From Psilocybe cubensis (Eukaryota): a stretch of 64,000 nt of DNA. The notes beneath the pieces are model-generated. The model was given only the letters and a program-made list of their open reading frames with translations, did no database searches and had not been told where the DNA came from. The stretch covers positions 248,001 to 312,000 of the forward strand of contig CM039009.1 in NCBI GenBank assembly GCA_017499595.2, in the 5' to 3' direction. How positions within the stretch are numbered: the first letter of the stretch is position 1; every line of letters begins with the position of its first letter. Shown one piece after another: positions 15,480 to 63,642 of the stretch. The position numbers and the translations under genes are program-made.

Positions 15480-18053
15480 TCAGAATGAAGTTACAATATC
15501 CTTGAGTTTTTCGAAGTTGGGTGTACCGAAACCAGTAACTGGAACATGATGTATCAAATCGATGAATTGGAAACAAAATCCGAATCAATTACCTGGATCC
15601 CAGCCCTCAGTAGCCTGTAAGAAAATGGATGGACATTATTGTATACCCCGAAGAAAACCGAAATTACGTACATTAAACCCAGATGTCAAACATCCAGAGT
15701 TATGCCCAACCGTAATATCATTGAATCCAGCTGCACCGCGAGAATATATCATAGGATTTAAAAACCCTAAGGGACTCAGCCCAGCCCCCAGGCGAGCGTC
15801 ATTCAGCATCGCTACGATTCCGGCGACTACTGGTGTAGCTGCAGAGGTGCCTCCAATCATATGTGGACGTCCAAATTGAAACGAGCGAAAATTATCTGAT
15901 TGAGCAGAAACATCGGGATATGCCTATATATAAGGATGATCAATAGATGTTGCTTCCTAGGAAAATACATAGCAGACAACGCACCCGTCCTTTCCTAATA
16001 TCACTCTAAGAGGGATCAATGTATGTTAAGTTTGATAGATACGCACGGATTATAAAGCCCCTGATATGTTCCATTCGGGAGACTCGATAGATATTTTGAG
16101 ACGACTTCGTCTTGGTACGGTGGTCTCTCAAACTGTAATTTGCGAGGTTAGAGATAGATAACTACTATCAATAGTGTTTTGCCAACATACATAATCACTG
16201 AAGCCACCACCAGAGTACCAGGTAGATACAGCAACTTCGGGAATGTATGACGTGCCTCCAACAGCTGTAACGCTTAAATATTGAAAAAGGTGAAAATGAG
16301 ATACGCTTTGATTATAAAATCGTTCTCACTAGGGGCAACTGGCACGAGCAAATCAGTTATGTTTTCTTCTCGTCAAAGTAATCGAAACATACCTCGCTGG
16401 GAACGAGGGCAAAAATTTGGTTGTGTTTTTGCCGTCGTTTGAGATACATGTGGAAGTACTATGGGGGTTCCAAACCCCATCCCCTACCCCAGTGTCCCCT
16501 GAAGAGAACAACAACGACACACCGCGCGCACCCAACTGAGCAAATTGGGCACAGATCCGTCTGGCATAACTCTCGGGAACTACATCCCCCTCTTAGCCAC
16601 ATCATGAAATATTTCTGACTACATGCCTACCTGTTTGTTCATCATCTCCATAACTAGTGGATATAGTCAACGGGAGATTATCTTGTTTCAGAACAAAATC
16701 AAGCCAGTCGCCATATGGTCTACATATCTCATTAGTGACCTACTGAATGTTCGAACGGAGAACGGAAATATTTACTCATTGGTATTGATCGTGGTTTTGG
16801 CGTCAGCGAGGAAAGGAGGTCTCCCAGCAGTTGAATAAAATGTGGCCTGTGTACAGTGATATATCACTGTGATGACGACAGAAATCCTAATGACATACTG
16901 GAATGGGGTATGAAATCCCAAAAGCGAATTGAACGTCGAGATTGGACTCAGAGCCTGCTTTCCATGAAGTTTGGTCGTTGAGTCCTCCTGCATATGCATA
17001 GTCTATTTCAATGAATATTCAGCGAAAGGGCTCATAGATCCTTACCAGCTACAGAAATAAATGTGAAAGATGAGTTGAGAGCTTCAGGACGTTGCTCAGC
17101 ATAAAATGATTGTAGGTCCATCAAGTTCGCAAATTCTTCCTGGATAGATAGTCAAGTTTGTCAGACCCCCATTGGTTTCATTATGAAAGGGTACAGACTA
17201 GGTAACCAGCGACCGCAATCGAGTTGTTCAAATTATGTGAAGGAACATATCTATCGGCGTTATAAAGCTTGAGGAGACACGGAATGGTTATAGTGTGGTT
17301 ACAGCTGGCGTCGACAGTGATATTCGATGCCACATCGGCAACTATTTGCGTACTTTCTTCCGATGACACTCTAGGTGCATCATCGACGGCGAATATTGTC
17401 GATCTCCGGGATTGTAATCCACCAAACGTAGTTGTTGGCTGGATGACGTCGACATGGGCTTCAAGTTGCGCAGGTATCTTGTAGCTCGTAGTCCGTACCA
17501 GCTTATCTCCGCTGGCTACGTGCTCCCATACGTGGTAGGTCTTTCGTACAGTTTGGTCGATAAGCATTGAAACGAAGGGAAAGAGCGGACGTACCGTGTC
17601 CAGCATTTCCTCCACAGTTTGCACCGGTAAGGTGACTTTGATCCAATCTTTTGCAGGAGAGTATGTGATGTCTTGATCTTCGACATTGAAAGATTTCAAC
17701 CATCGGGAAACTGCACTGAGGCTTCTGGGATGAGGAGAGACTAACGCCTCGACTTCCTGCCTTGACAGATGCTGACCATAATCGCTATGCTTTGGGTCGC
17801 TTACCTCGTATAAACGTTTCTCCAATTTTGGGAAGTTGTGTTGAGGAAGACCGATTTGCAAGGCTATTAGATGGTCTGGAGTAGGTCTCCCGAGTTTGAT
17901 CCACCCCAGTGGATGATGTACTACCTCTTTGATTGTGTTGTTCCCCCATTCATCAATAATTTTAGAGGTAAAGGCGAATCGTGGTAACAAAAAAGCCAGT
18001 GCATGGCAGAAAATGGCGAACTGCAATGTTGTAGGCATAAAGAATGGGAGCAT
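15480..18053 (-). CDS. Sedolisin / tripeptidyl-peptidase (S53) with pro-kumamolisin domain
   Basis: [17 protein letters not shown] prodomain; ESNLD, SSGD, GGTSA catalytic motifs; [13 protein letters not shown]. Confidence 0.95.
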
Positions 18054-19542
18054 GTATGAGCCTCGGACAGTTTATATAGGTGCGAGTTAGCATAGGCTGT
18101 AGACTAGGTGGCGCATGCTAGGTTCAACTAGTCAAAATCTGTTCAAACCAACGTGTCAGATAATAGGCCATCTGGAGTCAATTATATCCTTCATAAAGTT
18201 AGTAGCATTGTAGATGTTCCAGTAAAAGATTGTGTGAGCAATTATGGAGCCAATCGAAGATGTGCGCACCCTCCCATAGAATCTACAGATGCAGGAACGA
18301 CTGTGACTAGAGTTGCGCAACACGGCTCAAGGAAGGGGTCCCAACCTGGTCCCAGGAGTACCCCGCCATTCCCCAATAGTTGAGGCTAAGAACTAATAGA
18401 AGGAACAAGGATATTGTGGGGCCGCTACTATTAGATCTGGGCAAGAAAGGCTTCGGGAAGCTCCCCTTGAGTCTTGCTTGAATCTTGATAATATTGAGGC
18501 ACTGAGTCGGAGAGAACATACGTGGACGAACCCCTGAGGAGGTGCGCGGAGTTTTGCAGAATGTTTGACTCCGACTTTGATCTCCGCTTATTAGTCCCGG
18601 GTCTCTCACAGGAGTGGAGATCGTGCCCTAGACTCGCTAGCCAGTCGGTCTGAGCCCTTTGTTTGCGCATTGTTGTGGTTGTATTTAGATGGCAAACATC
18701 ACGCGGACTTTAATCGGAACAACGGCTGGGTACGAGCCTAATCGTGCCCTATAAAACGTGACTCCATGATGGCCTTCTCACTTCGAATCCACAGTCCGTA
18801 TTACTGCACGGCACAGCTCCTACAAAAATAGACAAAATAGGCCCAAGGAAGCATAATTTGGGGTTTAGCACTCCGGTTCCCATGGCCTGCCTTACGCGTA
18901 AGTATTGAACTTGAACAGTAATGATATATCGAGTAACGATGTGCCAGAAGGAAGAATTTTGAAAACCAGACATCATATAGACGATATACACTCTCGACAG
19001 TAGATCCGCTTCACTATTGAATCTTGAAAATTCCAAATTTTTGGAGAATTCTTCGAAAGGCTTAGAATCCTATGCGGTGAGGTCTGACAGGTGTCGTCCT
19101 ACTATTTGACCTAAATATACATGTGTAATTTCAGTTTTGAATGATCATACAGCCAATGTTTCAAAAGGGTTCCTTCCGACATTCTGTGGTGTCTCGTCGC
19201 CATAAATGCAGTCGGTCCTCGTAACATACCCGCTAAGGTTGGATCGACACGGGCTGTGAAGCGAGAGATAGATCTATAGCCAGTCTTATACAATGGTCAG
19301 TGGGCATTTCACATCAATTAACGTACAAGATGATTGTTATTCAATAGAATCACAGCAGATAAAACGCGAAATCAACATTTATGTCAGTATTCTCTTCAAT
19401 GAGGTTACTCATGTCGTGCAATCGCCGACCAACCCGACACACATGAAAAATGCTGTTTAACTCGCTTACTTGAGTTCTCTGCAGGTCTCTTCCTCACTCT
19501 GCGTACCATCTGTGCCCCCGTTGAAGACTTGTATCTAAGGGC

Positions 19543-21742: not shown

Positions 21743-24700
21743 CTATGGCATCGTACTTCCTCTGGTCACGATTCTTTTCGCAATCCGGTTCATGGTATCT
21801 TTGACTGATTGTTCATACTGTCTTTCGCGTTGAAGCGAGCGCATTTGTTGCTCGAATTGGTACTGGGCAAGTTGTGCAGCGTTTGCATTTGGAGGTACCT
21901 GTAGAGTTGCTGCTTCGGGTTGAGGGGTCGGGTATGGGGTCGGAATCGACCGCTGCGTTGCTTCGAGTAGATGAGGGTGTGATTGGGTTCGCGAAAGCTG
22001 CCTTTGATACGGGTTTGGCTGTAATTGTTGAGCATATGCTGGATGTTGTTCACCATGCGATTGCTGAAGAGCTTGTTCATTCGTCAAAGGAGGTGGAATA
22101 TCCAACGCTGGTGGCCTCTTCTTGCCTGGGCCATAAATATTAGCCTGCCTCCAGGCGCTTTCTCGATCACGGTTCTCTTTATCTCCTTCATCGTCAGTAT
22201 CGTCAGTATCGTCGCCACTATCGTCGCTGCCACTTTCATCGTCGGTATCGAACGGAATAATCGGAGGCATAGCCCATCCGGAACGCTCTTCTTGTCGGCG
22301 TTGCTGGTCCATTCGTCGCTGCTTATCACGCTGTCTAGCCTTTCGATCCCTTTCCGTGTTTCGGGGGCGCGAGGTAGAGCGTCGTCTCCAAAGTCGTGGG
22401 CCATGGGTGCCTGTCGCCTGCGCGATATGCTGAGGAGCATGACGATGGAATGGAGCCACGGCTGTGGCATTTGACACAGAAACTTGGCCGCCACCGCCGC
22501 TACCCACAGGGATACTACGGCTGATGTGACGAGGTTGCCCGCGCCCCCTTTCGCCTGAAGGATATTCATACCGATATTCATGTGGATAATCGTCGTCGTC
22601 GTCGTCATCAGGCGGTATGAACATCTCATGAGGGCCAGTCGACTGCGACCTTGCGCGAGATTTGGATCTCGACCTAGAGCCATAGGTAGAATTGCGCCTA
22701 GCCCTGGACCGCTCTCTCCTTTCCTCGGCTGATGCCATGCGCGCCGCCCTCACTTCATCCCTCTCCCACTCGCGGTCGTCTCTTTGCTGCGGAGGTAGTT
22801 GCTGCTGCTGAGGCGCTACTGCTGCAGGCACTCGTTGTAATGGTGGTTGAGCTGTTTGATGACCTTGAATATACAACCCAAGCTCATTTCCTCCTGTGAC
22901 GTGGCCATGTCCAGAGCCATAACCATAACCATTCATCTGGCTTTGACCCTGACTCTGTCCTGCCGTCGTTCCTGTCCCCCAACCCTCAACCATTCTGACA
23001 GCACAAGCGACCCGATCCTTAAATTCCTTAGTTCTGCTTTCATCCCACCTCGAATATCCCATAGCCCAACAATCCCTTTCTAGCACAGCTTGTAGCATCC
23101 CAGGTGTCCAACGGATGCCACTAATAGTAGTTGCTGATCTGTGAACAAAAGTATTAGTGACATGTAAAGCAAAAAGTTAGAAACATACCGGAGCAGTATC
23201 CCAACATCAGCAAAGTCCCTTCTCCCCCATCTGGCAATCTTGAGGGCGATACTCCATGCGGGCGTTACGCTGACAAGCTGTAGACGGCCATTCGGTGATA
23301 TATAAACGGAATACTGATTGATATTATGTGGCGTCACTGCTGATTTATGAATCGGATCGAACGTCTGATGTGTCTGTGGACTGGAAATAACAAAGAAAAC
23401 CATTGTCAAAATCTGATATCCTGAGAGAGACAAAAAATGGCTAGGCGTACTCAGCACCCAGAGGCAATGCAACATCGGCATCGGCATTCATCCAATCCAA
23501 ACCCAATCCAGGGAAATGACGCGCAGTGCGTCGAATGCAAGCTTTCAGACGCCCAATCGCGTCCAGCTGTGCAGCACGTTTCGGACTATCAGGGTCTGCA
23601 TCATCTGCTTGATCCATCGAATTTGGAGCAGGGGTACCATACGCCGAATATCCGGAATATCCAGGTGGTTGACTTCGATAAGCAACTGTGGCGGCGGCTT
23701 GGAGCACACGCTCAGGCGCACGTACACCAGAGTAATCATCCGCGAATGCACGCATAATTACATCAACATCCCTCGTGCTCGTGCGCCGCGCGAGATTCTC
23801 CATCTTCATGTTTTGCAAACTTTGTTGCTGCTGCATTAGCGCATCAAGGCTGGACACTTCGCCCCCTGACGCTGCCGCCATGTTGGGCATAGGAGCGCCG
23901 ACCAGAGGCATCTCCAGGCTCAGAGCATGAAAAACGGGGTGCAGGAGCATGCACGCGCCGCCATGCGCGACAAGCCGTAGCTTTCTCGGTCGTCTAGGGT
24001 TAGATCCCAGGCCATCCAATCCAGGTGAATCAGAGGCCTGTTCCGAGAAATCGAAGTAGTCAACCAGCAGCTCCGAAAACCGATCTAGAACGGGTATGAG
24101 CATCTCGCGCGTCATTTCCGTGACATTGTGAGCTGGTGGAGGTTGTGTGCCTGTGGACAGCGCGGGCTTCTGCGCTGTTGATCCATGAACAGGTGGTAGA
24201 ATGGGTTGCACGGGACCTTGAGGAACGAAAAGTTGGGACTGAGTGTGCGACATATATGCATGATGTTGCGCTGGAGGTCGGCCTTGCGGCGGCGGTGGTA
24301 GTTGAGGCTGTTGGTGTAGGGGTTGAGATTGAGGTTGAGGTTGAGGTTGAGGTTGCTGGCTTTGCTGGGGATGCTGAATAGGCGGTTGTGTATCTGTTGC
24401 TCTTTCTCCCAATTTGGACCGAACAGCAGTCGCAAAGGGGCCATTAGGGTCTGCCCATGCGCTAGCCCATCCAGGATGGGGACCTGTGATGGCATATGCT
24501 GGTGGAATAGGAGGCAGGTCAGAATCTCTGGCCTCCCGCTCCTCCTCCCGTCTATTAGCCTCTCTTCCTCTAGAGCCACTCCGAACAGTTTCTTCGCGTC
24601 GTTGTTGCTGTTGATGCATGAGCATGAAACCCTGCCCAGTCGGATTCGGGATTGGAATGACAGGCGGTTCGTTCTCAGAGACCGCATTACCTGTGTGCGT

Positions 24701-25387
24701 TGTCGAATAAGGCGAGTTGTACAAAACCGTTTGCAGGTGCTGATGATCATGATTAAGGACCTGGGCATGATTCGTGCTGGGATTGGGATACGAACGCGGG
24801 GCAGAGCGGCTTCGATTACGGCCACTCGTGTCGTTGTTATCTCCGTTTTCAACGGGACGTTGACCTTGAGTTTGGGCAAACGGTGGTGCATGCTGAGTAC
24901 CACCATAACCTTCACCTAGTTGAAATCCACCTCCAACGTATGAATTGCCTTTAGCAACGGCGGCTGCACCGCCTGTGGCAGGGAATCCCAGCGAAGAAAA
25001 CCCGTTGGGAATAACAGGGTTTGCGTTAGGGGCAAAGCTGGTCGGGTCGTGGTAAGGCGAGGGTCCATTGGGATTGCGATTCGTATTCACGATTCGCGGT
25101 TGATTTCCAGAGATACCTGGATTTCCTCCACCGTTAAGCGTGTTGGCCCCCCAACCAGACGAATTATACAGGTTTGGCGGCTGACTTGAGTATGCTTGAT
25201 GCATGTTCGGCTGGGGGCCGTAGGGCAGCCCGTTCATGGTCGGGTTCGGAACCGAATTTACGTTCTGACTCTGAGGCTGGTTCTGTTGTACCTGCGCCTG
25301 GAAAGGCGGACCAAATTGAGGATGAGATGGAGGGAATGATTGAGATATAGGTTGGGAAGAAAGATGTGAACGTGTTGGAATAGCCAT
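21743..25387 (-). CDS. ~1174-aa Q/N/P/G-rich protein with a central AbiEii/DUF1814-like (Pol-beta superfamily) nucleotidyltransferase domain
   Basis: Introns 23381-23450 and 23139-23188 give one continuous frame. Motifs LRLVAHGGACML, RRTSTRDVD, LDWMNADADVALP and ALKIARWGRRDFADVGILL. Confidence 0.8.
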
Positions 25388-27304
25388 GGCGAAAGAGTGC
25401 CACACGTTGTGTGTCTAGGTGTGAATGTGTATAAGCCGGATAGGTCAGAGGATGCACACAGCAACAAAACACGCAAATTAAAATCGTCCAGTGGCTGTGT
25501 GACCGTGGCAAGAAACTGGTCAAGGAGTAATATGGGATGAGACTCACTCGATAACAATCTATCAAGAGAACTACGATGGGACTGCAGACTGGAGTCGTGT
25601 CTGTCACTGTCAAAGCCACACAAAAGCAATAAAGTTACAATAGAGGGCCTCCCTTTCAATTGTTCAATGAGCCCGTGTGAAATATCTGTAGCAAGCTCAA
25701 CATACCGTATGTCAAGAGCCGAAAGATACAAAGAGAAAGGACAGGTCACTGGTAGGCAGGTCGGGTGAGGCAATTGAGACGACGAGCTCAGGCTTGATCC
25801 TGGGCGATGCACTGCCTACAGGTAACTGATAAGCAGCACTAAGGCTGCGCAGTGCTGGGCGCCGCTGGTGCGATCGCGTACGACGCTTGCCGTCAAGAGA
25901 CTGAGATATACTTCAGGGCAATGGTTGTTGAACTGGTAGTAGTCTACACGATGGCGATGGTGGGCGGAGGTTTACTGTGCACGTTCGCTCGTATCACTTG
26001 CTTCTCTTCGGCCGGATGAATCAAATACGGGTGTTGTTGCAACAATGCAGACTGATCCTATTTATGTATTTTCACCGCGAAAAAGAGAAAATCGTGCTGT
26101 CCTGTTAATTTAGCGTTAGCCGTGGTTATTCCAAATGAGATTCGCCTTTGTATGTCGAATCATGCGCAATGAACAATTTCATTCTGCTCAAAAGAATGGA
26201 TTCCCAATCCGAACTGGAAAATAAAGCATCGGCGATGTTACAACAAAATCTCCAACCATATGACTGAATGTGCGGCTAGCGGACAGTTCTCAGCATAGTT
26301 CACGGACACCATACCGCATACTACATAGTGTGCGCATTTGGAGATTCGAAATTGAGAGTATTGAATACACATACCTTGGGTACAGAATAAAAACAAGTTC
26401 GCAGCCTTCCTCGATTGAACTTTTCAGCAATCTCCAGCGCTGGCTGCCTCTAATCCAATCCGATCCAATCCGTCTCTGTGCCCGGACGTAGTAAGGGCTA
26501 CTCCCGATTTCCGAATACGTATTCAATAAGATCGATTCCGAGGTTGGCTTCGGAAATTGTTGAAGTCGATGGGGCCTCTGTGATATGCAAAGCAGGTGTG
26601 AGGTCGCTGGCTGTCAGCGCCTCGTTGCCTAACACGAGCTCAAATGCTTGACAAAATGCACAGCCAAACTTGGCGAGTGTGGGAATAAGACCACCGCACC
26701 TTGGGAAGGTCCATCAAAAGCAAATCAAAAGTGCAGCTAGGTATAAAAGAACAGGGTATAGCTTTCTACTTGTAAGCTGGGCCTATTCACGGCAGTTACA
26801 AGTCCTTGAATCTTGGAATTAATACTTTGGTGATTTTGATCGAAATTTGTATCAGCAATGTCTTACAGGATGTGCATTATAAGATCGTCATAATTCCATC
26901 TGACTTGAAAACTGTTGAAGACTTTGAAGGGAAGAATAAAACCACTAAAGTTGTATTTACCGTAACTATTTCATGAACACATCTATTTTTTAGGCCTTTT
27001 ATGCTAGGGAAGCCCTGGAGAACCTTGAATATTCCAAAAAATCCGAAGCAATGATGGACCATGGTCTGCCACCTTTTCTGACTCAGCATACATATTTCGA
27101 GCTCCGCTGATGTTCCGATGTGCCGCGTAGGTCTCTTTTCGCACTCCGATCAATGTTTAACAAATAAATAAATGCAACATTTGTACAATCACAACACTTG
27201 GTACATGCCTTTTCTACTAAATTCTAGAAAAGAGACAGCAAATTATTTAACACTGCGTGAGACGGTCTGATTTGCGAGGCTATAGTACAAGTTGATTATC
27301 TACC

Positions 27305-28585
27305 CTATGAGGGGTCCAGCACCGCAAGTCTGTCGGCACATTTAGCTATCTCTTGCCTCTTCTTTACAAACGTCGTAAACTCTCCACCTAGCATAACGGT
27401 CAAAGATCCATTTGAATGGCCCGATTTACTGATGACCGAATAAGCATCTTGGAAAGATGCCTTTACGTGGTTGATACCATAGGCTTTAGAACCCATGTCA
27501 ACAGAGGCATCGGCAGGATCGACGATACAGAGTAGGTATCGTTGAGTGTTGTACTTCGAGTACACAGACGTCTTCGTTGTATAAAAAGGTTTTGGCTCGA
27601 TAATAATGGCACACGAGTGATAGTCGAAATGATGTCCATAAAATGAAAGGAATCCCTTCAATGCCTCTCCATAGTATGACTGGAGAGAGTGCCCTGTATA
27701 GGAGGGGGATATAGATGTACGATCGGTAGGATACGTATTCGCGTATATTGAGAGATTTCCGAATGATGACATAATCGACGAGAGATGGTCTTCATCATCC
27801 GCCTTATGTGGTGTTTGCTTTCCCTTGATTTTTGGCCATTCAAGATTGACCCAGGCAACGATCATCCATACTAAAACGTAGGAGTTGATTCCTCCTGTAT
27901 ACGTCGACCCACATCTTCTAACCATCAGGAATGTTTTGACGACGAAAAACAACATCTTCACAATTTCTTCATCTTTCTTCATCCATTTCAAAACTGCATT
28001 GGTCGCATTAATCCCTCGTGAACCTCCATCCGAAAGGTCTATCTCAATCCCAGTGAGCTTATCAGTAACTTTGATTACGGGTATGGATGCAAGGAAGACA
28101 GTCTCCACTCTGCTGGCAAAACCAGAGCGAAGTATCTTGGGATAGAGGCTCTTGACATCGACATACGTCTAGAATGATGATCGTAGACTTCGTGGCTGTA
28201 TGACCATATCAACGTCGGATGTGGGTAAACAAAGTCCTGTAACAGAAGACCCAACCGAAACTACTGTGACCGTATCGTTTATCGATTCAATGAGAGTGGT
28301 GAAACGACTAATGACATCTTGACGGATGGCAATCTCCCGATCGGAGGGAGTCATATACTCCAGGAAATGTTTAATCTCCAAGCTTCATGAATTATTAATC
28401 TGTAATCAAGCTGAGTGTGACTGGAATTCAACATACGACAACGTTGTTGGTGATATTTGAGAACTCTTTGACCAAGGAGCCGTAGATTTTGATGTTCCCG
28501 CTTGTTCGAAGTCACCGCATAAAGGGATAGAAACTCCGGCATAGTCAGAGTAGCTTTTCATCCTGGTAGGTAGTCCGGACATCAT
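27305..28585 (-). pseudogene. Trf4/Cid1-like non-canonical poly(A)/terminal nucleotidyltransferase with one in-frame TAG (28169-28171)
   Basis: GSSVTGLCLPTSDVDM, IPVIK, IEIDLS, TGGINSY and PAP-associated LCIVDPADASVDMG; intron 28383-28436. ORFs 28381 and 28108 are in the same frame, separated only by the TAG. Confidence 0.8.
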
Positions 28586-30314
28586 GTTTCTCTTTAAAAT
28601 GAGAGATATGGGATGCATCAGGGAGTATAGTGATGTTAGTGCACAAGTGGCGCGAAGAATGGTGACGAAAAAATAAGCGCCGGAAGAGATCGCATGTTGA
28701 TTGAATGACGTGGCTCAGCTCGATATAGCTTATCGATTTACCCACGGCGACGGTGGCTCATTTGCAGCATCACTGAGAAAGGTTATATAAGACCAGAAGA
28801 TTGAAAAGAAGCAATAACCTATTTATAAATAAATGGCACAAACCATTTGTCTAGATATAGCTGGATGGCTACTGACCATGAAAACCAATTCCATAGTCGG
28901 TTAAAGAAAGCGAGCCTCACGCTCAAGTCATATATTCGTGCAAAATCATCACACACTTAAAAGGTCTTGGGTAATTGATTTTATGTAAACATGCAGATGA
29001 GCGCTTGAGAATGAGGTATCATGAGTGTTCAGCTATACTATTCCCGCATGTAGAAGAACCGTAAAATACTCATGTATACACAGAATTGTTCCACATTGAT
29101 CCATGGTTTCTGCATTTTCTAGATTTCTGATTGGAACTTGAAGTAAATCGAGTTGTTTGTCAAGTGATGAAAAATCTCTGTTAAGTAATCTCAAAGCAGA
29201 ATGCACTAGTGACCTTCGGGAAATAGCCAAGAAAAATGATAATGGAAATCATGTGAAGCCACGAAGAGGTTCGCGAACCTGGACCGTATACTCAATTGTA
29301 GAAAAGAAGCGTAAGAGAATGTGCAACAAGAATGCACAAAATACTACTATGTCCGTCCCCGGGGCCCGTATCTTGTGAGCAGACCTGCGTCAATGGCTCG
29401 GACCTTTTAAACAACGCTTAGCGCTAGGCCATCGGGTCAACCTGTAGAATGGGGACAAATATTCTCACTCATACTTGCCTTATGGCTTCCACTTTTATAT
29501 AAGAGACATACCTGAATATCACGCTGAACATGTTAGACATGCAGCCTCGGGAATGTAGTCCGTTCAAAACTTGCACTCTGCCACAGTTGGTCCCACACAT
29601 AACCGCAACTTTGATATGATATATCAAACTTTTTTTGCTCTAAGTCTGATATCTGTGGACGTTATAGCACAACGAAGTACAAAATGCTATAGCGCATTGA
29701 AATACCCCTCTTCGGATTTTGATTTATCCAGAGCTCGTAATAGACAGCCTATTGGAAGGTTTTATTGACAACGAAATTTTGAGGGTTCCCAAGTATAGGA
29801 CGAGATATAGCTTCTCAACAACGGGTATCATGTTGAGTAGTGTTAAGTTCCTTAGGTAACGGTACAGGAGCAACGCAGGTCGTACGACCAAAATGGGACT
29901 TCTTTGTCACAGATCTGGTAGTTTTATACCTATTCAATGGCCACCTTTCAGTGATATTAGAGAAGATGAACACAAGGCCATCCGCTTTCTCGCTCACTAC
30001 CGTTTAATATAGTGACCTGAGATAAAAGCTCCTGTAATGGGACCATCCATCCGATAAATAACCTACGAGTAGTCACTGATATTAAGGAATCCAAGGGCTG
30101 TAATGTCGGAGAGAAAACTGTATGGAGATTGAGAAGTGAACTCCACGTCTTTGACAACTTTGAGAAGGTTTAGGGTTACATAGAGTAGAAACAGGGACAT
30201 TTCATGCCATCCGAGCATCGGAAAATTAGTGGGGTTTGATCAGCTTTTGGCCATCGGCTGCCGACAGCATTATTTCAAACCCCGAAGTGATCCAAAGATT
30301 GAATGATGACAACC

Positions 30315-33963: not shown

Positions 33964-34323
33964 TTAATGTTTTGTAACTTGTTTTTTGTTATATTACCCT
34001 GTTCTCATATTCTTTCATGACGTTATTTTCTTGGACATGTTTTCGTAATGTTTTCTTGTTGTGTTACACATCTATTCTTGTATATACCTGCTGTCACTGC
34101 TCTCTTGGACCTTTAGACCCCATTTCCATTACCTTTCTACAATAACCATCAGTATATATAGAAAAAAAAGTTCTTAATACATACATATATTTTGTGAAAA
34201 ACAACTGTTTTCAAGAACAACATAACATAAAACATATGTTGAACATGTTTTTTCAAAAACATATGTTGAAAATATGTTTTATGTTTTCCAAAACCAAACA
34301 TATGTTTTCAAAAACATCATCTT

Positions 34324-34937
34324 TGGTGGTGGAAAAACAACGGTGGGTAGACATACGTCTGCCGTACCATCGCGGTGGTGGGTAGACAGCACCACTGCGG
34401 TGGTGGGTAGACAGTACCACTGCGGTGGTGGATAGACATACATCTGCCGTACCACTGCGGTGGTGGGTAGACATACATCTGCCGTACCACTGCGGTGGTG
34501 GGTAGACATACATCTTCCGTACCACTGCGGTGGTGGGTAGACATACATCTTCCGTACTACTGCGGTGGTGGATAGACATACGTCTGCCGTACCACTGCGG
34601 TGGTGGGTAGACATACATCTTCCGTACCACTGCGGTGGTGGGTAGACATACATCTTCCGTACTACTGCGGTGGTGGATAGACATACGTCTGCCGTACCAC
34701 TGCGGTGGTGGGTAGACATATGTCTGCCGTACCACTGCAGTGGTGGATAGACATACATCTTCCGTACTACTGCGGTAGTGGGTAGACATACATCTGCTGT
34801 ACCATTGCGGTGGTGGGTAGACATACATCTGCTGTACCATTGCGGTGGTGGGTAGACATCTGCCGTACCATTGTGGTGGTGGGTAGACATACATCTGCCG
34901 TACCATTGCGGTGGTGGGTAGACATACATCTGCCGTG
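34324..34937. repeat. 35-bp minisatellite CCGTACCACTGCGGTGGTGGGTAGACATACATCT(G/T); ~14 full units plus several partial ones
   Basis: Unit starts at 34447, 34482, 34517, 34552 and so on. Confidence 0.97.
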
Positions 34938-37140
34938 AATCCAATTGCCGCATCTTTCTTAGAACATGCAAAAATCCACAGTTTCCCACCAACCTGGGTT
35001 TCAACGAAGGTTCCCAAGCCGTTACTGTTGATGTGCCAGCCGTGCCAGGCACCTTCTGAAGCCGCTAGTCCCCAGCGTGTGTGCGCTGCATTAAAGGGCA
35101 TTGGCATCATCCAATCCCCCATCGTGGCATAAAGCGCAGTATAATCAGTGCTTTCATTGGCATTGGGATATCCAAGTAGTTGACAATTTTATTCAAGGTT
35201 TCGTTCTCAACAGCATTGTGTAGCTGTTGCAACGTCCCCTGTCGGAGACAAGCGTTCAGGTTACCTCCCTCTGAAGCGAGGGACTGGTCTGCAAGTGGCA
35301 TGTTAGCAGCAACAAAACACAAGATCTGACAAATTACACATACCAGAGACAGTCCTTACAGTGGTAGGAGATCCCAGGCAAACCATTAGACAAAGGCGGC
35401 GGGGCGGGGTTAGAAGATTCCCCAGCTTCTTTGCCTTTACTGTTCTGCTTTTCTCCATCCTCACTGCCTTTCCTTTCTTCCTGGCTTCCCTCACTCTTCT
35501 CAGTGTTGCCCTTGCCCTCGCTGCCTTCATCGTCACTTTTCTCAGTATCGCCCTTGCTGTCACTGTCCTGTTTCTCATTCTCAAGTTCACCAAAGTTTTT
35601 TGGTGTGGGTTTTTTGCCATCCTTGTTGCCCTTGTCATCATTGTCTTGCGTGTCATCCTGGGTCTCCGCACTTCCTGACACGGTGGAATTTGGTAGTTGA
35701 ACTCCCATGTCTATGTCCTTCTGAACCCCCTCATTGTTACTTTGCGTCTTCTCTCCGTCCCTCTCCACATCACCCGTGTCTCCCTGCCTTTCAATGGGTG
35801 TCTTTAAAGGTTCCGAGGACAGATGTGGAACCCCCGCATCGGTACCTTGCGTATTCTCTTCGTCCATCTCGACGTCACCCGTGTCCATTTCCACATTGTG
35901 GTCTGTGTTATCAACGTGTCCCATGATGCTTTTGTTGTTTGTGTCTATGGAGTCCCCCTCCTCCTAGTTTCCTCCAACGGTGTCATCCTTTTTATTTTCA
36001 AGATCCTTCTTGTCTTTCCCTTCCACTTCCACGGTATCATTATTGTCGTCGTCGTGGTCATACATTTGTAGTTGCAAAATAGTTCGGGGGATTGAGGATG
36101 AAGTGAGCCCTGATATAGCTGAAATACAACATTAGCATTCCAAAAAAAGCTAAGAATGCAGGCATTTACGATCAAAATAACGGACTGCAACATGTCCTAA
36201 AGGTGTACATTCCCACTTCATCCATTCTGGTGATGAAACTAATTTGATAAGCTCCTGGACTGCGTCCCCATGACAGGCTATGTTCCAAATTGCACTCTAC
36301 ACCGCTGTTTCCACCTTGATTAGTAGGGCCAGTTTGTCGTTCCCTGAGGATACGCATATTTGCCACAAGTCAACCTGGCTCACGGCCTTTTTGTACAGAC
36401 AAGTAGTGTTGAAAAGGTAAAGCGGGGAGATTAGCAATGCGAGCTGCAGAGGTACGCGGACATTACGACTCCACTATTTTGTCAGAAGTGCTTGGACCTG
36501 ACCATGGATAGGCAGAGTGCAATCGTTGTTGCTCAGCCTTTGCAACACGACTGCCAGGTCATTCTCCATATTCGGTGGGTGCAACTGTTTGCCATCCATT
36601 TCCATTAAAGCCACTAGATGCAGGGCCGCCGCTTCAAAGTTACCGATTATGTTTGAATAATTTCTCGACACGTTTGTTTGAGCCAAGGCTAACAATAACC
36701 TGATGGCCATTGACGCGCTTGCTGGTGTTTGTGTCGCTGTCGTTCTCTCGCAGTAATTTATCAAAGTTTCTCTGGCAGTCTTGAGTATAGACGGCCAGTT
36801 TCATAGTTCGTCCCAACCCTATAGTATGGTACAGCATTGGTGAGCAATGGAATATATTTCCTTCACACAAGGATTTTACCTTGAAACCTTGAACCATTTG
36901 TTCTGTCCAAGAGCGGGACTTTGCCGCATTCACATTGACAGGCAAAATTCCATTTAAACCCATTACAGAAGGGGTCATGCAAACCTGGTCTATTAGGCAA
37001 TACTGTGCCAATGCAGTTGTGGCGAGGTCGTAGCAAGGACCCTTCCGTGGCGGCTCCATGTTTGACCCATGATATTCCAACAGGTAACGCGTGTTGGCGG
37101 TGTTTGTATCACTGTCCCTGATTAAATGAGTTTTGTACAT
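34938..37140 (-). pseudogene. Decayed, 3'-truncated JmjC-like (cupin-fold dioxygenase) gene preceded by an acidic linker
   Basis: RWGLAASEGAWHGWHINSNGLGTFVETQVGGKLW resembles the JmjC HxD...GxKxW core. Upstream are a D/E/K-rich segment and a PLQLALLISPLYL block, with frame breaks. Confidence 0.65.
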
Positions 37141-50652: not shown

Positions 50653-52660
50653 ATGTCAGTTGAAGGCCCAGCACCCCAAGTTTTGCAGGAACAATTGTCG
50701 CACGTTTACGACATCCATACGCGTCATAATCTACATCCACCATCTAAGCATGAAGAGCACGGGAACGTGAGGTTGAGCGACGAAATACTCCGCTTCCTAG
50801 AAAGCGTCGAGGAGGTACGTCCATTTATGGCCACCACTTCCCTGTAGTGATATAGGCTTCACCATTACAGAGTGTAGACTTAATTCTTCAAAGACCCGTT
50901 TTGCGCCCTTCCCCAGTTGATGAAACCCTTCCATTGACGCATTACTTCATTTCGTGAGTGTATTTGGCGTTGCTCTGCAATTTTTTCCCCCATTTTTCTC
51001 CCCCTCGCGGTTAGATCCTCTCATAATACTTATCTGCTCTCACGACAACTGGTGGGAAAATCGTCTGCCGCATCTTACACTCATGTTTTAGGCAGGGATG
51101 GGCGCTGCGTAGGTAAGTCATATCTTCAGTTATTCAGATTACTCGATGTGTGCCACAGTTAACCTGTTTCTCTAAAAATAGAAATTGATGTTTGGCCCTC
51201 ATCCGGAGGCTTGGTCGTAACACACGGGTATACATTTAGCAAAGGCGTGTCATTTTCTTCAGTTTGCGAGGCAATTGGTGAAGCTGCAACTCCTGGATGT
51301 TGGCCCATTTTTGTGAGCCTCGAGTGCCACGTCGATGTTGATGGTCAACAGGAAATGGTCAAGCAAATGCGCAGCGCGTGGGGGGACAAACTCGTCAACG
51401 GAAAAGTTGAGGGTGTTGAGGATGAAAAAATATCTCCGTCGGATCTGCGAGGAAAGATTGTGCTTATGGTGAGTTCTCAATATCATGCATCTACATGTCG
51501 ACAGCTTACGCGTCCGATGCCAACTTGCCTACTTACGCTGGTAATAGGTTGAATACTATCCAGCATTGATATCAGGCACAGGGGAAACCGATGATACTGC
51601 TTCAGTCGCTTCGGAATCCTCCGGGGAAGAGGAGGGTGAGGTTGCAGAAACCGCTGTGGACAAGAACAAGATGATGCCCAATCGTATTTCAGAGGAACTC
51701 GCTGAGCTCGGATATTATGCCCGAAGCATAAAACCATCAAGGGGATGGCTTTTACAAAGTTTGTCTAGTTTACCTTGGCATTTCTTTCTTCTCAGTGAAT
51801 TAAGTACAAACTTCTCCAGAAATATCTTCGCCTGCACACGTTCTGATCAACATCTCGGAATCTGCATGTCTGTCTTTAATCCCTACTTCGTTTGCATCGC
51901 TTGTAGATCATGGCTCCAGACATCTTCGTCGCATCTACCCCAAAGGGACTCGCATAGGATCAAGCAACTTTAATCCACTGATCTTTTGGAGAAATGGAAG
52001 TCAGGTTGCGAGCTTAAACTGGCAGGTGTATGATCTAGGCATGCAAGTCAACGAAGCGATGTTTTGTGGTACTTCTGGATGGGTGGCAAAACCTGTCGCA
52101 TCTAGAAAGAGGCTTGATGACGAGTATAACTTGCCTGGTGGTAGACAAAAATTAGTGGTCGACATTGCTGGCGTCAGCTCCTGTGAGTGGCCTTAATCCG
52201 GTGGTTGGAATTTACATTGCAATACTCAATAATATACGTAGTACCAGCCCCTAATGGTCGATCGGGGAAGTCCTTCTCCACTTACATACGGGCACAATTG
52301 CTTCATGGAAGCAAAGACCTCATGTGGCGCTCGAAGACGCACAAAACCAAACATCATCCTGAGTATGGTGCTGATGTCTTATGGAACACTCAGTTCGAAT
52401 GGGAGTTTGAATCCGATGAAATGGCCTTCATAAGGTGACGGGTCTTTTTCTGATTGAAATTTAGTTACACTGATTCCCATTGCGTCAGGTTTGTCGTATT
52501 CGAAGATGAGTTTGGTATAGATGACAAGATAGCGGTGTTTTGCGCCCGAATCAACCACCTAACCCTGGATGAGTGGGTTTTGGTGAGACTAATGAATATG
52601 AAAGGCAAAAATTCGGGTGCGACAGTACTTGCAAAATTTTCCTTATCCCCCGTTCAGTAA
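50653..52660 (+). CDS. Phosphoinositide-specific phospholipase C (X-Y-C2)
   Basis: HYFISSSHNTYL, RCVEIDVW, THGYT, SLECH, RIYPKG...SSNFNP...LNWQ and a C-terminal C2 domain. Confidence 0.93.
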
Positions 52661-58796: not shown

Positions 58797-61282
58797 ATGC
58801 CTCTTTTCTATATGTGAGTAATTTTACCGAAGAGTGATCTGATCACTCATACTCGTATGACAGGCACGGCATGCCCATCGGTGGCACGGCGATCATGCTC
58901 GCCCTCGTCGCTAGTATGGGCGGGTTTATATTTGGCTACGACACAGGCCAGATCTCAGATATCCTACTCATGGAAGACTTCAAGCTGCGATTCGCGACGT
59001 GTTCCAATCCGGTCGACCATAATAGTTGTGAATTCTCGACGGTTAGAGCTGGTTTGATTGTCTCTCTACTTTCAATAGGAACTCTTGCTGGAGCGTTGAT
59101 GGGAGCACCGTACGTCGCCGTTAAATTTATGGGATCGTTCTGATTGAATCCGTTTGAATAGAATTGCAGATGGGATTGGAAGGAGGCGTGCCATGACGGC
59201 CGAATGCCTTCTGTTCTGTATAGGAATTATCGTACAGTTAACCAGCTTTCATGTGTGGCAACAGGTAGCAGTTGGGCGTCTTATATCAGGCCTTGCAGTC
59301 GGAGCTCTGAGCGCCGCTGTACCCATGGTACGTTTAGAAGGTTTTCGACCAATACGTCTATTTATTGTTATCGTCATTAGTATCAAGCAGAGACGGCTCC
59401 AACCCAGATACGAGGGACTTTGACGGCTACATACCAGTTATTCATCACCCTCGGCATTCTCGTCGCTTGTATGTAATTGATTTATCCTCAGTCACCGTTG
59501 TTCTTTGACTCCTCCTTACTTCATAGATTGCATTGCCATTGGCACTCGTAGTCTCCCTGGAGCAGCGTCATGGCGCACCCTGATTGGAATTGGATTCGTT
59601 TGGCCTGTCATCCTTGGAGTTGGCATTCTCTTCATGCCAGAGTCACCCAGGTGGCTCGTGGCGCATGGTCACACCAAAGCTGCAGAACGCTCTATCGCTC
59701 GTGCATACGGCATCAAAGCGGCAGACGAGGGAACGAATCGCTTTGTTCAAGCCGAAGTCGACGAAATTGTCAATCAGGTACAAATGGAAACCAGGCTGAG
59801 ATCTGGATGGATAGATTGCTTCAAACCGAAGAATAAGACACTGTATCGAACGTTGTTGGGTATGACACTCCAGAGTTTCCAGCAACTTACCGGTGCAAAT
59901 TACTTCTTCTACTATGGTGCCACTATTTTCCAGAGTGTTGGGATCAACGATAGCTTTGTCACCCAGATTATTCTGGGCGCCGTCAACTTTGTATGTACGT
60001 TTGGGGGATTATATGTGATGGAAAGAGTACGTTCATCGTTCTCAAGTTCCTTTAATTTTGTTTGCTAAATTTTTCTCACATAGTTTGGGCGCCGGAGACC
60101 TCTTATTTGCGGTGGAATTTGGCAAGCTGCATGGCTGTTCGTCTTCGCTGCTGCTGGTACAGCGAAGGACCCAAGAACTAATTCTAACATTGGAAAGCGT
60201 GAGTATCTCAAAGGATACATCTTGTCCAATTCCCGCTGACGTCATTGCTACCTTCTGTCGGCACACAGTCATGATTGTCAGCGCTTGTTTGTTTATCTTA
60301 GGATATGCAATGACTTGGGCCCCTGGAATATGGATTCTCATCGGAGAAACCTTCCCGACAAGGACAAGGGCTAAACAGGGTGCGCTGTCGACTGCGAGCA
60401 ACTGGTTGTGGAATTTTTTGATTGCGTTCTTCACGCCTTTCATTACCTCCGCAATTGATTTTAGATACGGGTTTGTCTTTGCGGGTAAGATTCTCATTCA
60501 CGTTGTATAGAAAGCCTTCCGAGATATAAGTGATTTATCTTTATCTAGCATGTAACCTCACTGGAGCTGTGATTGTGTTCTTCTTCTTGTACGAGAGTTC
60601 GGACCTTTCACTGGAGAGTGTCGATAACGTATGTATTGTTTTTCAAATCGAATTCAAATCTATTATCCCATTGACCCGACTTCGGCTGACCATACATTCT
60701 TAGATGTATAATGACCCACATTGCAAGCCTTGGACATCCAGTTCCTGGGCTCCTGCTGGTTACTCATCACGCTACGACCTTGTCGAACAAACAAAGGCGG
60801 CCCAGGCACGCAAGCCGCTTGCGAGTGGTGCCATTGAAGAGAAGCAAATCGAGCACGCCGGACAGCCGAATGGCGTCAATGGACAGGCGGTCCCTGGGTA
60901 TACGGCTGCCCCTGGTGTTGGAGCAGGATTCGGAAGCGACGCGGGTGCGGGAGGTCTTCAAGCTCCTCAAACGATGATGAACATGCCCGAACCTGATCTC
61001 CAAGGCACTCAGGGTTACAGACGGGCTTCGAGTCGCGTTCCACCGCCACCCAGCGATAGCTATACGCTGCCTCCTGAAAGTGGGTTCGCGACTGGGGCTG
61101 CTGTGAAACCCGGTGCTGGGGGACGTGAGATTAACGTGGACATGGATCCCAACAGGGGTCTACAGGGTGGAGTTGGTCTGACGAAGGAAGGCCCTCCAGG
61201 AGGTATTGGAATGTCGGAAGCTGATGGACACGGAAACAAGGGCAACAAATTGGAAGCGGGATACTTGGGGAGGGTGCTGTGA
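58797..61282 (+). CDS. Hexose transporter (sugar porter) with a long Gly/Pro-rich C-terminal tail
   Basis: GGFIFGYDTGQI, GRR, PESPRWL, QQLTGANYFFYYG, GETFP and SNWLWNF; 192-aa last exon. Confidence 0.95.
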
Positions 61283-61860
61283 GTTATCATGACCCTGATT
61301 CCTCTCTGCACTTACATTATTCCTCCCATGCTATATATTGGATTACTATAACAGACGACATAATGTCATGATTTCTCCTACATATCATAGTTGTACGATA
61401 GCTCGGTGTATTATTTTATTATACGGCTTGCGGGATTCAGAGACTGATCCCTCAAAATTAATGGTTTTGCGTTCCGTTCTCTTATGTGTGGATGTCAATT
61501 TAATTACTCATGGTTTTACCTTAACTCCTACCGCCAGTATGCAGGGGTGACGCGCGTCCATTGTCAGTCGTGTAGTCGTGTATACATCATATAAGTCTCG
61601 TGCTGGGAATTTTTTTTTTCCGAAAAAAAATAGCAATCGGCGCAGCATTGCCGACCTTCAGGGACAGGGGCTGTTAAGGGCCAGTTATCGACGCAGCTTC
61701 CGAGGTGGTTCATGTCTAAGCTCATGGCCGATGTACTGTGATTGGGTACCATAGGGCTACAATTCTCGATCAACGTGTGTGCAAGCGACCATGCCTCGCC
61801 TTTGGTCTGCCTTGCCTTCATACACCCCTGTGCTTCAATGCAAGTCAGTAGAGATTCCCC

Positions 61861-63642
61861 ATGACATTTGAAGAGTCCTACACTTACCCCGGGATGCAGA
61901 TGTTTGAATCTAAGTGCATGCTAGATGGAGACAAAGAGACGAGCTACTCACCAATATATCGACTCGATTTTGACGTGCTGGGATACATATTCTCGATGAA
62001 CACAGAAATGGGTGCACTGCAGCTGGCTCTAGGTGAAGGGAAACAGAACTCAACGTTCCTCCCTCTAAACATTCTACGCTCATGCTCACAAGTATGTCGT
62101 CAATGGAGACAACTAGCTTGCGGATCCTCGACATTGTGGGGACGAGTCATCCAAGTAGACTTGTTGACGCAGAGGGAGGCTTATTGGAGGGATTGTGTGA
62201 TGCGGAGAACGGGAGATGCACCATTGTGCATATCGGGAGTCATCGATGGTAGAGTGGAGGCTTGTCGTTTGTTTCTCCACGACCTTTTGCGGCGTCAATG
62301 GTGGAGAATCCGCGTGTTTGACGTGCAGATCAGCCATCATTCAAAATTCGACGGCGACACGTGGAGGGTGCTACAAAGACCTTCTCCTATGCTCCAAGTT
62401 TTCAAAGTCGTTCCTCGATGCTGGGACGATTATATATTCCTGGCATTGGAGGAGACTACAGGACGTCTGTTTGCGGATTCTGCGCCTTCTTTGAAAGAGT
62501 TTGCGTTCCCGGAGGCACCAGAGCTGTACATCTCCCTTCAAGCACCATGGATGAAGCATGTGTCGACACTTGTGCTTTTTGGAGGATTTCTTTCTTCGGA
62601 TATGATCGATGCATTGGAAGACATGGGTGATCATTTGGAATATCTAGAATTAAAGGATGGATTCATGAAGCCTCTCGTACAACCAAGACAACGTGTATCC
62701 CTCCCGCATCTTCGAAGATTGTCGGTCACCAACAGACTTCAGATATGTGTATTCCTCCTTCACTACCTCATCCCCGCGCCTGGGTGCTCTCTTTTTCTTT
62801 CGACACATAGGAACACACATATATACCGCAATATCTCGCCCAAGGATATATCCGATATCAACACACAAATTTGGCGATACGCCGATAACTTCTTGTCTGT
62901 GCACGATGCGTTTGTCGATACTCTCCGGCTTGCATATAACTCTAGGTCTTTCTCCTTCACATTGAGCCACGGTCATGCTCCCATTGCCACCGGTTCCTTC
63001 ATATCTCCAGGACGCCGTGAAAGCCCTGAATTCAGTGTCAATATTGTTGCAGGATTTAGGTTGCCCAAACAAACGTCGCGTATCTTCTTAGATGCCATTA
63101 AGCTGTCTCCACGGACAACCATTGTAACGTTTGATTTTACTCCCAGCAAAGTGGACCCTATGGACGAAGAAAATCTACGACCCACGATGGTAATCCCTTA
63201 TCTTTCTTCAATGACTACCCTTGCAACATCCGAATACGGGTTCGAATTACTTCTTCTGGAAGAAAGGAATGCATGCCATTTACCCTGTTTCATAGAGGAT
63301 ATCTTCCCTTCACTGCATACATTCACGCTCAAATATAACGGTCCGCTGGAGAATCGCCCGACTTTCGAAATTTGCATCCTTTCTTTTCTCAAGGCACGGA
63401 TTATAACCGGTAGGCCTCTACCGACCCTCGATGTATCAGATTTTGCATTAGAAAAGTTGTGGATTCGTTCTCGTGGGCGTGAAATCAAGAATTGGAAGTA
63501 TCTGGAGGATATACCCGGGCTGAAGGTAATACTCCATAGTAGGCGTTCCATCTATGGGGTTGTAGCTAACTTTAGAAATGACGGAGAATGGGAGGAATTT
63601 TATGTTTGCGGCTCAGGGGAACCGAACAGACTTGTATCATAG
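61861..63642 (+). CDS. Intronless F-box-like protein
   Basis: SPIYRLDFDVLGYIF...CSQVCRQWRQLACGSSTLW followed by LRR-like segments (LPHLRRLSV). Confidence 0.85.
   Translation: MTFEESYTYPGMQMFESKCMLDGDKETSYSPIYRLDFDVLGYIFSMNTEMGALQLALGEGKQNSTFLPLNILRSCSQVCRQWRQLACGSSTLWGRVIQVDLLTQREAYWRDCVMRRTGDAPLCISGVIDGRVEACRLFLHDLLRRQWWRIRVFDVQISHHSKFDGDTWRVLQRPSPMLQVFKVVPRCWDDYIFLALEETTGRLFADSAPSLKEFAFPEAPELYISLQAPWMKHVSTLVLFGGFLSSDMIDALEDMGDHLEYLELKDGFMKPLVQPRQRVSLPHLRRLSVTNRLQICVFLLHYLIPAPGCSLFLSTHRNTHIYRNISPKDISDINTQIWRYADNFLSVHDAFVDTLRLAYNSRSFSFTLSHGHAPIATGSFISPGRRESPEFSVNIVAGFRLPKQTSRIFLDAIKLSPRTTIVTFDFTPSKVDPMDEENLRPTMVIPYLSSMTTLATSEYGFELLLLEERNACHLPCFIEDIFPSLHTFTLKYNGPLENRPTFEICILSFLKARIITGRPLPTLDVSDFALEKLWIRSRGREIKNWKYLEDIPGLKVILHSRRSIYGVVANFRNDGEWEEFYVCGSGEPNRLVS

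Follow-up and report, generated by a model that had tools for sequence, protein, structure and literature searches.

A MenT1-like nucleotidyltransferase domain in a Psilocybe cubensis protein with low-complexity flanks, and its relatives in mushrooms and bacteria

MenT-type nucleotidyltransferases (NTases) are known as bacterial toxins restrained by a partner. According to the available text of PMC10435456 and PMC11375011, MenT1 (Rv0078A; PDB 8AN4), a tRNA acceptor-stem toxin, extends tRNA CCA ends with C and loses its activity when T39 is phosphorylated, and its residues T39, D41, D43, K137, D149 and D152 serve as phospho-acceptor, metal-binding and catalytic residues. The motifs of DUF1814-type NTases are defined in PMC7205606, which, like PMC11375011, states in its available text that DUF1814 occurs in fungi; Pb27 of Paracoccidioides is listed as a DUF1814 member (10.64898/2026.01.19.700257) and described as a structurally solved antigen (PMC7913102), and AbiEii-like annotations in fungal genomes are mentioned in PMC13448219 and PMC11822852, without functional work in the available text. 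Here we describe a gene on the minus strand of a 64,000-nt stretch of Psilocybe cubensis DNA (contig CM039009.1, positions 248,001–312,000; hereafter the window), which encodes a domain of this kind between long low-complexity flanks. In the literature searched, with subscription journals mostly outside its coverage, we found no functional study of the fungal family and no mention of DUF6036, DUF7582 or their accessions; the original prediction, made from the DNA alone, named no characterized fungal member, whereas fungal DUF1814 members and the Pb27 structure are already in print. What is new is a eukaryotic variant of a known enzyme type, probably not prion-switched, and the main interest lies in an intact toxin fold that occurs across mushrooms without its partner and in its pairing with NOD-like receptors (NLRs) in one lineage.

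Domain fold and bacterial relatives

AlphaFold models of the window's domain and of a compact homologue (P0119), with predicted local distance difference test (pLDDT) values of 84.9 and 92.8, respectively, both retrieved MenT1 as the top match in structure searches (VIA; Z 7.3, root-mean-square deviation [rmsd] 4.4–4.8, 167–170 residues aligned, 16% identity), followed by MenT3, MenT4, Pb27, ANT(2''), LnuA and TM1012. The top-ranked whole-domain matches were all NTases of MenT/ANT type (Z 5–7.3), in keeping with a Pol-beta NTase core followed by a helical C-terminal lobe, and no cGAS/OAS-type entry was found among the best 50 rows of either search. The fungal protein Pb27 (PDB 5UVD) also adopts this fold (Z 5.7 and 7.2) and took the first Foldseek row at E 0.17, but shares only 16–17% identity, belongs to a separate family and is known as an antigen and a structure. 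ANT(2'')-Ia and LnuA share the core fold (Z 7.2 and 6.0), but their acceptors are small molecules.

Profile comparisons led to the same enzyme type through bacteria. The fungal profile found one protein, L169 (185 aa), in 502 bacterial genomes (no match in a set of 301, one in a set of 201; the 301 include the unpublished G006, G023, G093 and G151, on which no claim depends), and close bacterial relatives of the fungal family were not found among the 301 + 201 genomes searched. L169 passes the cut-off of DUF6036 (PF19502), aligns to the fungal profile at 97.8% probability (HHalign) and has relatives in 26 of 301 genomes of one phylum. An alignment of 14 bacterial DUF6036 members matched the fungal profile that has the window's domain as its first row at 97.9% and that of the compact homologues at 98.5%, with all motifs in register; this subfamily (L169, L197, L200) thus comprises the closest sequence relatives found (97.8–98.5%, 23–28% identity over 133–135 columns), and shares with the fungal family the segments LG.DW(L/M)N and P..LA.KL. 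The bacterial subfamily profile in turn matched MenT1 at E 1.3e-5, with the same TRDVD word, and Pb27 at E 0.021, and the chain reached neither ANT nor Lnu. Through it, T538, D540, D542, K693, D701 and D704 of the window protein correspond to T39, D41, D43, K137, D149 and D152 of MenT1. The fold and the profile chain therefore agree with the original claim of a DUF1814/MenT-type NTase with intact motifs, whereas the proposed kinship with AbiEii and MenT3 needs adjustment: the nearest bacterial relatives are the bacterial DUF6036 subfamily, and the nearest characterized one is MenT1.

Family models were less informative. Pfam gave no match on the window's exons, and in sets of 29 and 47 homologues the cut-offs of AbiEii (PF08843), DUF6036 and DUF7582 (PF24483) were not reached, with sub-threshold matches at matching segments for DUF7582 in 27 of 47 and for DUF6036 in 10 of 47. 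Language-model features (Atlas) of the compact homologue placed clusters of Ascomycete DUF7582 (0.94) and of bacterial DUF6036 (0.93) at the top, and the ranking was weaker for the window's exon (0.88–0.90); the likeness to DUF7582 was compared by profile and features only, and its best score was 16.6 of the 27 bits required. NCBIfam and PADLOC models gave a single weak AbiEii match (E 0.004) in 48 fungal members. Searches of the P. cubensis genome for the AbiEii, DUF6036 and DUF7582 families were empty, the last being uninformative since it also missed its controls.

In bacteria, 16 of the 18 loci of the subfamily have a DUF6036 gene that overlaps a partner gene, itself conserved; six of these loci seeded the partner profile. 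The two-gene module (L169:1246-2200, L195-L211) consists of a DUF6036 enzyme of 165–185 aa and a partner of 130–200 aa that matches no Pfam family except for an optional helix-turn-helix (HTH) domain, fused in 4 of 7 partners scanned. This pair is likely an undescribed toxin–antitoxin pair. The partner profile found nothing below E 0.7 in fungal proteins, the flanks of 31 long loci or the window's frames, and one query of the P. cubensis genome returned only a stop-ridden piece (E 0.017); judged by its sequence context, the Psilocybe gene is not part of a toxin–antitoxin system. Unlike MenT1, the fungal protein is eukaryotic, intron-containing and without an antitoxin gene, and differs from it in its inserts, motif spacing and, in Agaricales, long disordered flanks.

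In a tree built on 136 columns from 21 fungal and 30 bacterial sequences, which omitted five loci that were duplicates or unpublished and four that had no usable frame, the fungi formed a single long branch that fell within no bacterial group, so that the tree indicates neither a donor nor a date for a transfer. Descent of the fungal family from bacteria by transfer is plausible. A pattern scan of GTDB found no relative and a tblastn search of phages none; a plasmid match in tblastn (E 1) was an unrelated gene and was rejected.

Gene model, fungal family and flanks

The gene and its domains comprise the following features.

25653..25705, minus strand: intron in the 5′ untranslated region (5′UTR), 53 nt, skipped in contigs of runs X1 and X2
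25495..25547, minus strand: 5′UTR intron, 53 nt, skipped in X1 and X2
23451..25387, minus strand: coding exon 1, which holds the start codon, the low-complexity extension at the N-terminus and the first half of the NTase domain
23381..23450, minus strand: intron 1, 70 nt, GT..AG, skipped in X1 and X2, position common to the family
23189..23380, minus strand: coding exon 2, holding K693..R696 and D701..D704
23139..23188, minus strand: intron 2, 50 nt, GT..AG, skipped in X1 and X2
21743..23138, minus strand: coding exon 3, with last domain helices, disordered tail and stop codon
24140..25387, minus strand: N-terminal Q/N/P/G-rich extension, aa 1–416, subclade-specific
22973..24139, minus strand: MenT1/DUF6036-type NTase domain, aa 417–765, with three low-complexity insertions (~aa 446–466, 494–530 and 556–606)
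23957..23965, minus strand: motif I, HGG (H475-G476-G477), kept in 139/140 homologues
23762..23776, minus strand: motif II, TRDVD (T538-R539-D540-V541-D542), with the equivalents of the MenT1 phospho-acceptor T39 and metal-binding D41/D43
23206..23241, minus strand: motifs III and IV, K693..R696 and D701..D704, equivalent to MenT1 K137, D149 and D152
21746..22972, minus strand: C-terminal disordered tail, aa 766–1174, with an RS-rich stretch, EMFIPP, and a basic then an acidic run, an order that recurs in Agaricales homologues
22610–22678, minus strand: RS-rich stretch plus EMFIPP, in the tail
22277–22387, minus strand: basic Arg/Asp run, in the tail
22181–22249, minus strand: acidic Asp/Ser run, in the tail

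The spliced coding sequence (25387–23451/23380–23189/23138–21743) encodes 1174 aa with a single terminal stop, and both introns are A/T-rich with branch-point-like words. Contigs of runs X1 and X2, from one study, splice out exactly introns 1 and 2 plus the two 53-nt 5′UTR introns, whereas X3 and X5, from a different study, retain the introns and read through unspliced; X1 and X2 are probably RNA, although this is a guess, as no run is recorded as RNA, and four of the five listed runs were compared. These contigs give no expression level. The two introns, motif order and flank sizes proposed originally, as well as low-complexity insertions within the domain, were thus all borne out by X1 and X2 and the spliced translation. 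The NCBI model (P0078, JR316_0012092) is identical to residues 51–1174; the longer start at 25387 lies 50 codons upstream of the NCBI start (25238–25387), in a GCCATGG context and under transcript cover, and no upstream ATG was found in the 407-nt spliced 5′UTR piece examined. Of 74 metagenome loci that contain the motif, 70 have a GT at the offset of intron 1, and the remaining four read through as transcripts would; a GT at the offset of intron 2 occurs in 22 of 67 loci.

Three protein searches and one profile search yielded a family set of 307 proteins, 140 with the whole domain; among the matches listed (the best 120 of 426 and the best 150 of 321), GG was kept in 139/140 full-domain homologues, T/S-x-DxD, including the equivalent of MenT1 T39, in 135/140, and KxxRxxxxDxxD in 139/140. 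Given this near-invariance, in line with the conservation expected originally, the motifs in the window protein are evidently not due to chance. W632-M-N634 sits between motif II and K693 in the spliced protein, and profile alignments revealed fungal-specific helical and hairpin inserts beside the active site. The domain spans 346 aa in the window protein and has a family median of 228 aa, and compact natural members of ~240 aa exist.

We take the named members to belong to Agaricales, Boletales, Atheliales, Polyporales, Russulales and Plicaturopsis. A FastTree phylogeny of 73 chosen members largely tracked fungal taxonomy and grouped the window protein with Gymnopilus, Galerina and Agrocybe pediades (support 0.997), in a subclade that evolves faster. 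Two queries found a single locus in the P. cubensis genome, and strain differences in the coding sequence (four runs, two studies) comprised 11 synonymous and 5 non-synonymous changes, none in catalytic motifs (pN/pS ~0.14). From tree and strain comparisons, the Psilocybe gene is vertically inherited and under purifying selection. In Schizophyllum, four paralogues (P0139, P0152, P0169, P0187) carry DxN in place of DxD or have lost the motif II acids and are probable pseudo-enzymes; those of S. commune, a genetic model organism, cluster on one contig about ten genes apart. The homologue P0120 carries a C-terminal protein kinase domain, either a genuine fusion or a merged gene model, and P0081 (with a dehydrogenase) and P0179 resemble merged gene models.

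The flanks of the window protein are compositionally extreme: the N-flank (416 aa) contains 12% Q, 8% N, 16% P and 9% G, with four charged residues in aa 1–130 and 27 Q+N and 12 Pro in its best 80 residues, and the C-flank (409 aa) contains 13% R, 11% Q and 7.5% D. The original prediction took them as a sign of possible prion-like control of the enzyme, which was not supported as a family trait. The median N-flank is 14 aa, and a long Q/N/P N-terminus was found in 1/140 full-domain proteins, P0078, although some database models are possibly truncated. Counted from the first Met, the open frame ahead of HGG does not exceed 162 aa in 23 of 24 non-Russulaceae loci, three of which are cut by contig ends; an upstream exon may have been missed in such counts. 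The remaining locus (L020, L020:1025-7309), from the same subclade, has a 691-aa Q/N/P extension of near-identical composition (33 Q+N in 80) and a tail with long RD dipeptide repeats; for comparison with the 33 of L020 and the 27 of the window protein, a threshold used for prion-like domains is at least 30 Q+N in 80 residues. The two extensions do not align (best E 1.1), and since they share composition without alignment, what the subclade appears to retain is a prion-like composition, not a motif.

C-flanks are shorter than 100 aa in 70/140 proteins and at least 250 aa in 44/140. Among these 44, we found basic runs in 34, Asp/Ser runs in 33, the basic run before the acidic one in 21 of 27, and [FV]IPP words in 22, all above shuffled sequences, as were R-D/E/S dipeptides (841 against at most 740), although shuffling overstates the significance of any low-complexity run. 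Tracts of RS/RD type and acidic tracts are a mark of proteins that process RNA in the nucleus and of kinase sites; as a lead only, these runs suggest a location in nuclear RNA bodies.

NLR-linked copies in Russula-like relatives

Analysis of the loci with a WMNDH variant of the WMN motif, which are closest to a named Russula protein (84–95%), revealed enzyme copies next to NLR genes of Goodbye-NACHT-ankyrin architecture. Of the loci of at least 7 kb, 16 of 21 Russulaceae-type ones contain NLR pieces versus 0 of 10 of other types, a comparison among these loci only, and none was found in the window. In 14 loci of any length, the NLR is encoded on the opposite strand with its 5′ end 1.2–1.5 kb upstream of the enzyme's WMN motif, in head-to-head orientation. 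Tandem arrays of intact and decayed enzyme copies facing these NLRs were seen in L027, L033, L035, L048, L073, L079 and further loci of WMNDH type; in L027, two NLRs and four copies of the enzyme, two of them decayed, lie within 17.6 kb. In sets of 38 and 35 distinct intact exon stretches, from which those with stops were excluded and which include other species at high dS, dN/dS was 0.13–0.23, and ~0.2 even at dS ~0.1; no diversifying selection was detected among the Russula-like copies.

Three assemblies with neighboring prefixes, probably of one lineage, supply 15 of the 16 long loci that are linked to an NLR, so that the linkage may reflect a single co-duplication. Several linked NLRs are fragments, and the NLR probes were derived from the same Russulaceae-type loci, one of them also detecting P. 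cubensis NACHTs, whose matches lie on contigs other than the window's. Named Lactarius and Russula genomes have one or two enzyme copies in the clusters read, and fungal NLRs cluster in any case (10.1101/2024.11.26.625400, available text). An epoxide hydrolase gene recurs near the Russulaceae-type enzyme (L033, L043, L046, L069, L073); its presence in L046, where no NLR was seen, suggests that the NLR joined an older locus.

Known fungal NLR–effector pairs with amyloid signaling, in which effector and adjacent NLR have a short motif in common, resemble the Russula-like loci in that NLR and candidate effector are neighbors; enzymatic NLR effectors are known in fungi, and this enzyme class is absent from the 19 effector profiles in the available text of the same source (PMC9815663). 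However, the Russula-like NLRs carry a Goodbye domain instead of a short amyloid motif, and no NLR lies beside the window gene. A short amyloid motif in common with an adjacent NLR was not found for the Psilocybe protein: the window holds no NLR, and the candidate word is missing from the L020 extension, no dedicated amyloid-motif scan having been made. Thus a defence role gained indirect support from tandem amplification beside NLRs in Russula-like relatives, whereas allorecognition is disfavored in P. cubensis, where the gene has one copy, a pN/pS of ~0.14 and no NLR piece in the window.

Possible functions and genomic neighborhood

The reading that we tentatively prefer, and that comes near to an even chance, is a domesticated, regulated MenT1-type RNA 3′-end NTase without the bacterial partner gene, its substrate, control and role all being predictions. 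On this view, the Psilocybe gene belongs to an Agaricomycete family that is old, has been passed on vertically and derives from the enzyme gene of the bacterial two-gene DUF6036 module, the partner gene having been lost. The enzyme is predicted to bind Mg-NTP through GG, D540/D542 and K693 and, by analogy with MenT1, to extend the 3′ end of an RNA by one or a few nucleotides, with a CCA end of tRNA type as the most likely acceptor, which may dampen translation or mark RNA for turnover. As the gene is transcribed without an antitoxin, phosphorylation of the conserved T538 or the fungal-specific insertions presumably keep the enzyme inactive, and the disordered flanks would most likely set location and phospho-control instead of acting as a prion switch. 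If this is true, a eukaryote has tamed a tRNA-end-modifying toxin, partner-less, as a new step of RNA tailing or translation control. The lack of a Pfam model for the family, the compact members and the mapped catalytic and regulatory residues make the function directly testable.

Several results weigh against this reading. The fold scores are middling (Z <8, rmsd 3.7–4.8), MenT1, ANT(2'') and Pb27 are tied at Z ~7.2 for P0119, so that no substrate is singled out, Foldseek against PDB and viral models returned no match at E ≤0.001 for the window's domain or P0119, and the fungal profiles matched nothing relevant directly among PDB sequences. The link to MenT1 is transitive, through a bacterial DUF6036 family known by its sequences. 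An Arg precedes the first Asp of motif II at –5 (R535), not at –4 as does the invariant Arg of the superfamily (R76 of MenT3, R37 of MenT1), a shift also present in most bacterial DUF6036 subfamily members, and the spacing between motifs III and IV (K to DxxD) is shorter than in MenT1. The tail statistics share the inflation inherent in shuffling, and since half of the homologues have no long tail, a nuclear reading is limited to Agaricales. The Schizophyllum copies without the second Asp imply that activity is dispensable in some copies, and a purely housekeeping role does not account for the NLR linkage in Russula-like loci.

That linkage is the core of an alternative that we consider unlikely, in which the enzyme is an immune effector or a guarded bait: when viruses, bacteria or other fungi attack, it would stop translation, or be watched, downstream of an NLR, and the head-to-head pairs in Russula-like genomes would then reveal a link that is unlinked elsewhere. 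The excess of NLR pieces in Russulaceae-type loci, the 14 head-to-head loci, the L027 array, the dN/dS of ~0.2 kept among the Russula-like copies, the weak scores that bacterial relatives obtain with models of AbiEii defence (5 of 14 with one of them) and the precedent of enzymatic effectors (PMC9815663, available text) all fit, and the enzyme would add a new class to the NLR effectors of basidiomycetes, a group in which, according to the same text, immune effectors have been poorly annotated. Set against them are the probable single lineage behind 15 of the 16 linked long loci and the origin of the probes in those loci, the one or two copies in named Lactarius and Russula clusters, the lack of diversifying selection, the location of P. 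cubensis NACHTs on other contigs, and a different neighbor in five Agaricales-type loci. Equally unlikely, in our estimate, is a small-molecule or protein NTase like ANT(2'') or LnuA, which would detoxify a bacterial or fungal metabolite or add AMP or UMP to a protein: ANT(2'') gave the lowest rmsd (3.7, Z 7.2), LnuA and TM1012 reached Z 6.0 and 6.1, single-copy conservation suits a metabolic or signaling enzyme, and the inserts beside the active site could reshape an acceptor pocket; but the sequence chain arrives at MenT1 and Pb27, not at ANT or Lnu, the C-terminal K..DxxD motifs conform to the MenT pattern, as does the Thr ahead of DxD, and RS/RD-rich tails better fit RNA work.

An allorecognition effector switched by prion or amyloid formation, in which aggregation of the Q/N-rich N-terminus turns on the toxin domain, is very improbable. 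The nearly uncharged aa 1–130, the Q+N content of both extensions and one FQLG word in the N-terminus, which we take to resemble a RHIM-type core, speak for it, but the extension is absent from 139/140 database proteins and 23 of 24 non-Russulaceae loci, L020 has no FQLG-type word in an extension that fails to align, and a Pro content of 16–17% in the extensions disfavors amyloid. Genes for het-type allorecognition are highly polymorphic between strains, and the Psilocybe gene, with mostly silent variation, is not; nor does the window hold an NLR, unlike the amyloid signaling loci in the available text of PMC9815663. A nucleotide second-messenger synthase, cGAS/OAS-like in role and with its product sensed by an NLR or another receptor, is likewise very improbable: the broad Pol-beta fold and the NLR adjacency in one lineage are compatible with it, but the top whole-domain matches are all of MenT/ANT/Lnu/Pb27 type, and the characterized relatives transfer to acceptors without cyclizing. 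The boldest combination, which we regard as quite unlikely, is a mushroom tRNA-tailing toxin from a bacterial toxin–antitoxin module that is kept as an immune effector and released by NLR signaling or T538-type dephosphorylation to extend tRNA CCA ends and halt translation, with NLR–enzyme pairs in Russula-like genomes and a prion-like N-terminus for condensate control in the Psilocybe subclade.

Around the window gene, a Cid1/Trf4-like non-canonical poly(A) polymerase with intact GS and DxD lies ~2 kb upstream on the same strand (27305–28600, minus); a linkage with this neighbor was rejected, as no window frame matched any of 80 metagenome loci (25 of at least 8 kb). Five Agaricales-type loci (L011, L016, L032, L034, L040) have in common a convergent neighbor ~2.5–3.2 kb downstream, which has no Pfam match, is absent from the window and presumably is G-alpha-like. 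A 311-aa frame without a Pfam match (34256–35963, minus), which adjoins an acidic low-complexity frame, presumably resembles JmjC-like genes of mushroom repeats. The window further contains an S53 peptidase pro-domain (17184–18071), a cytochrome P450 (44768–45502), a phospholipase C (51163–52193), a sugar transporter (59481–60065) and an F-box protein (61852–63639).

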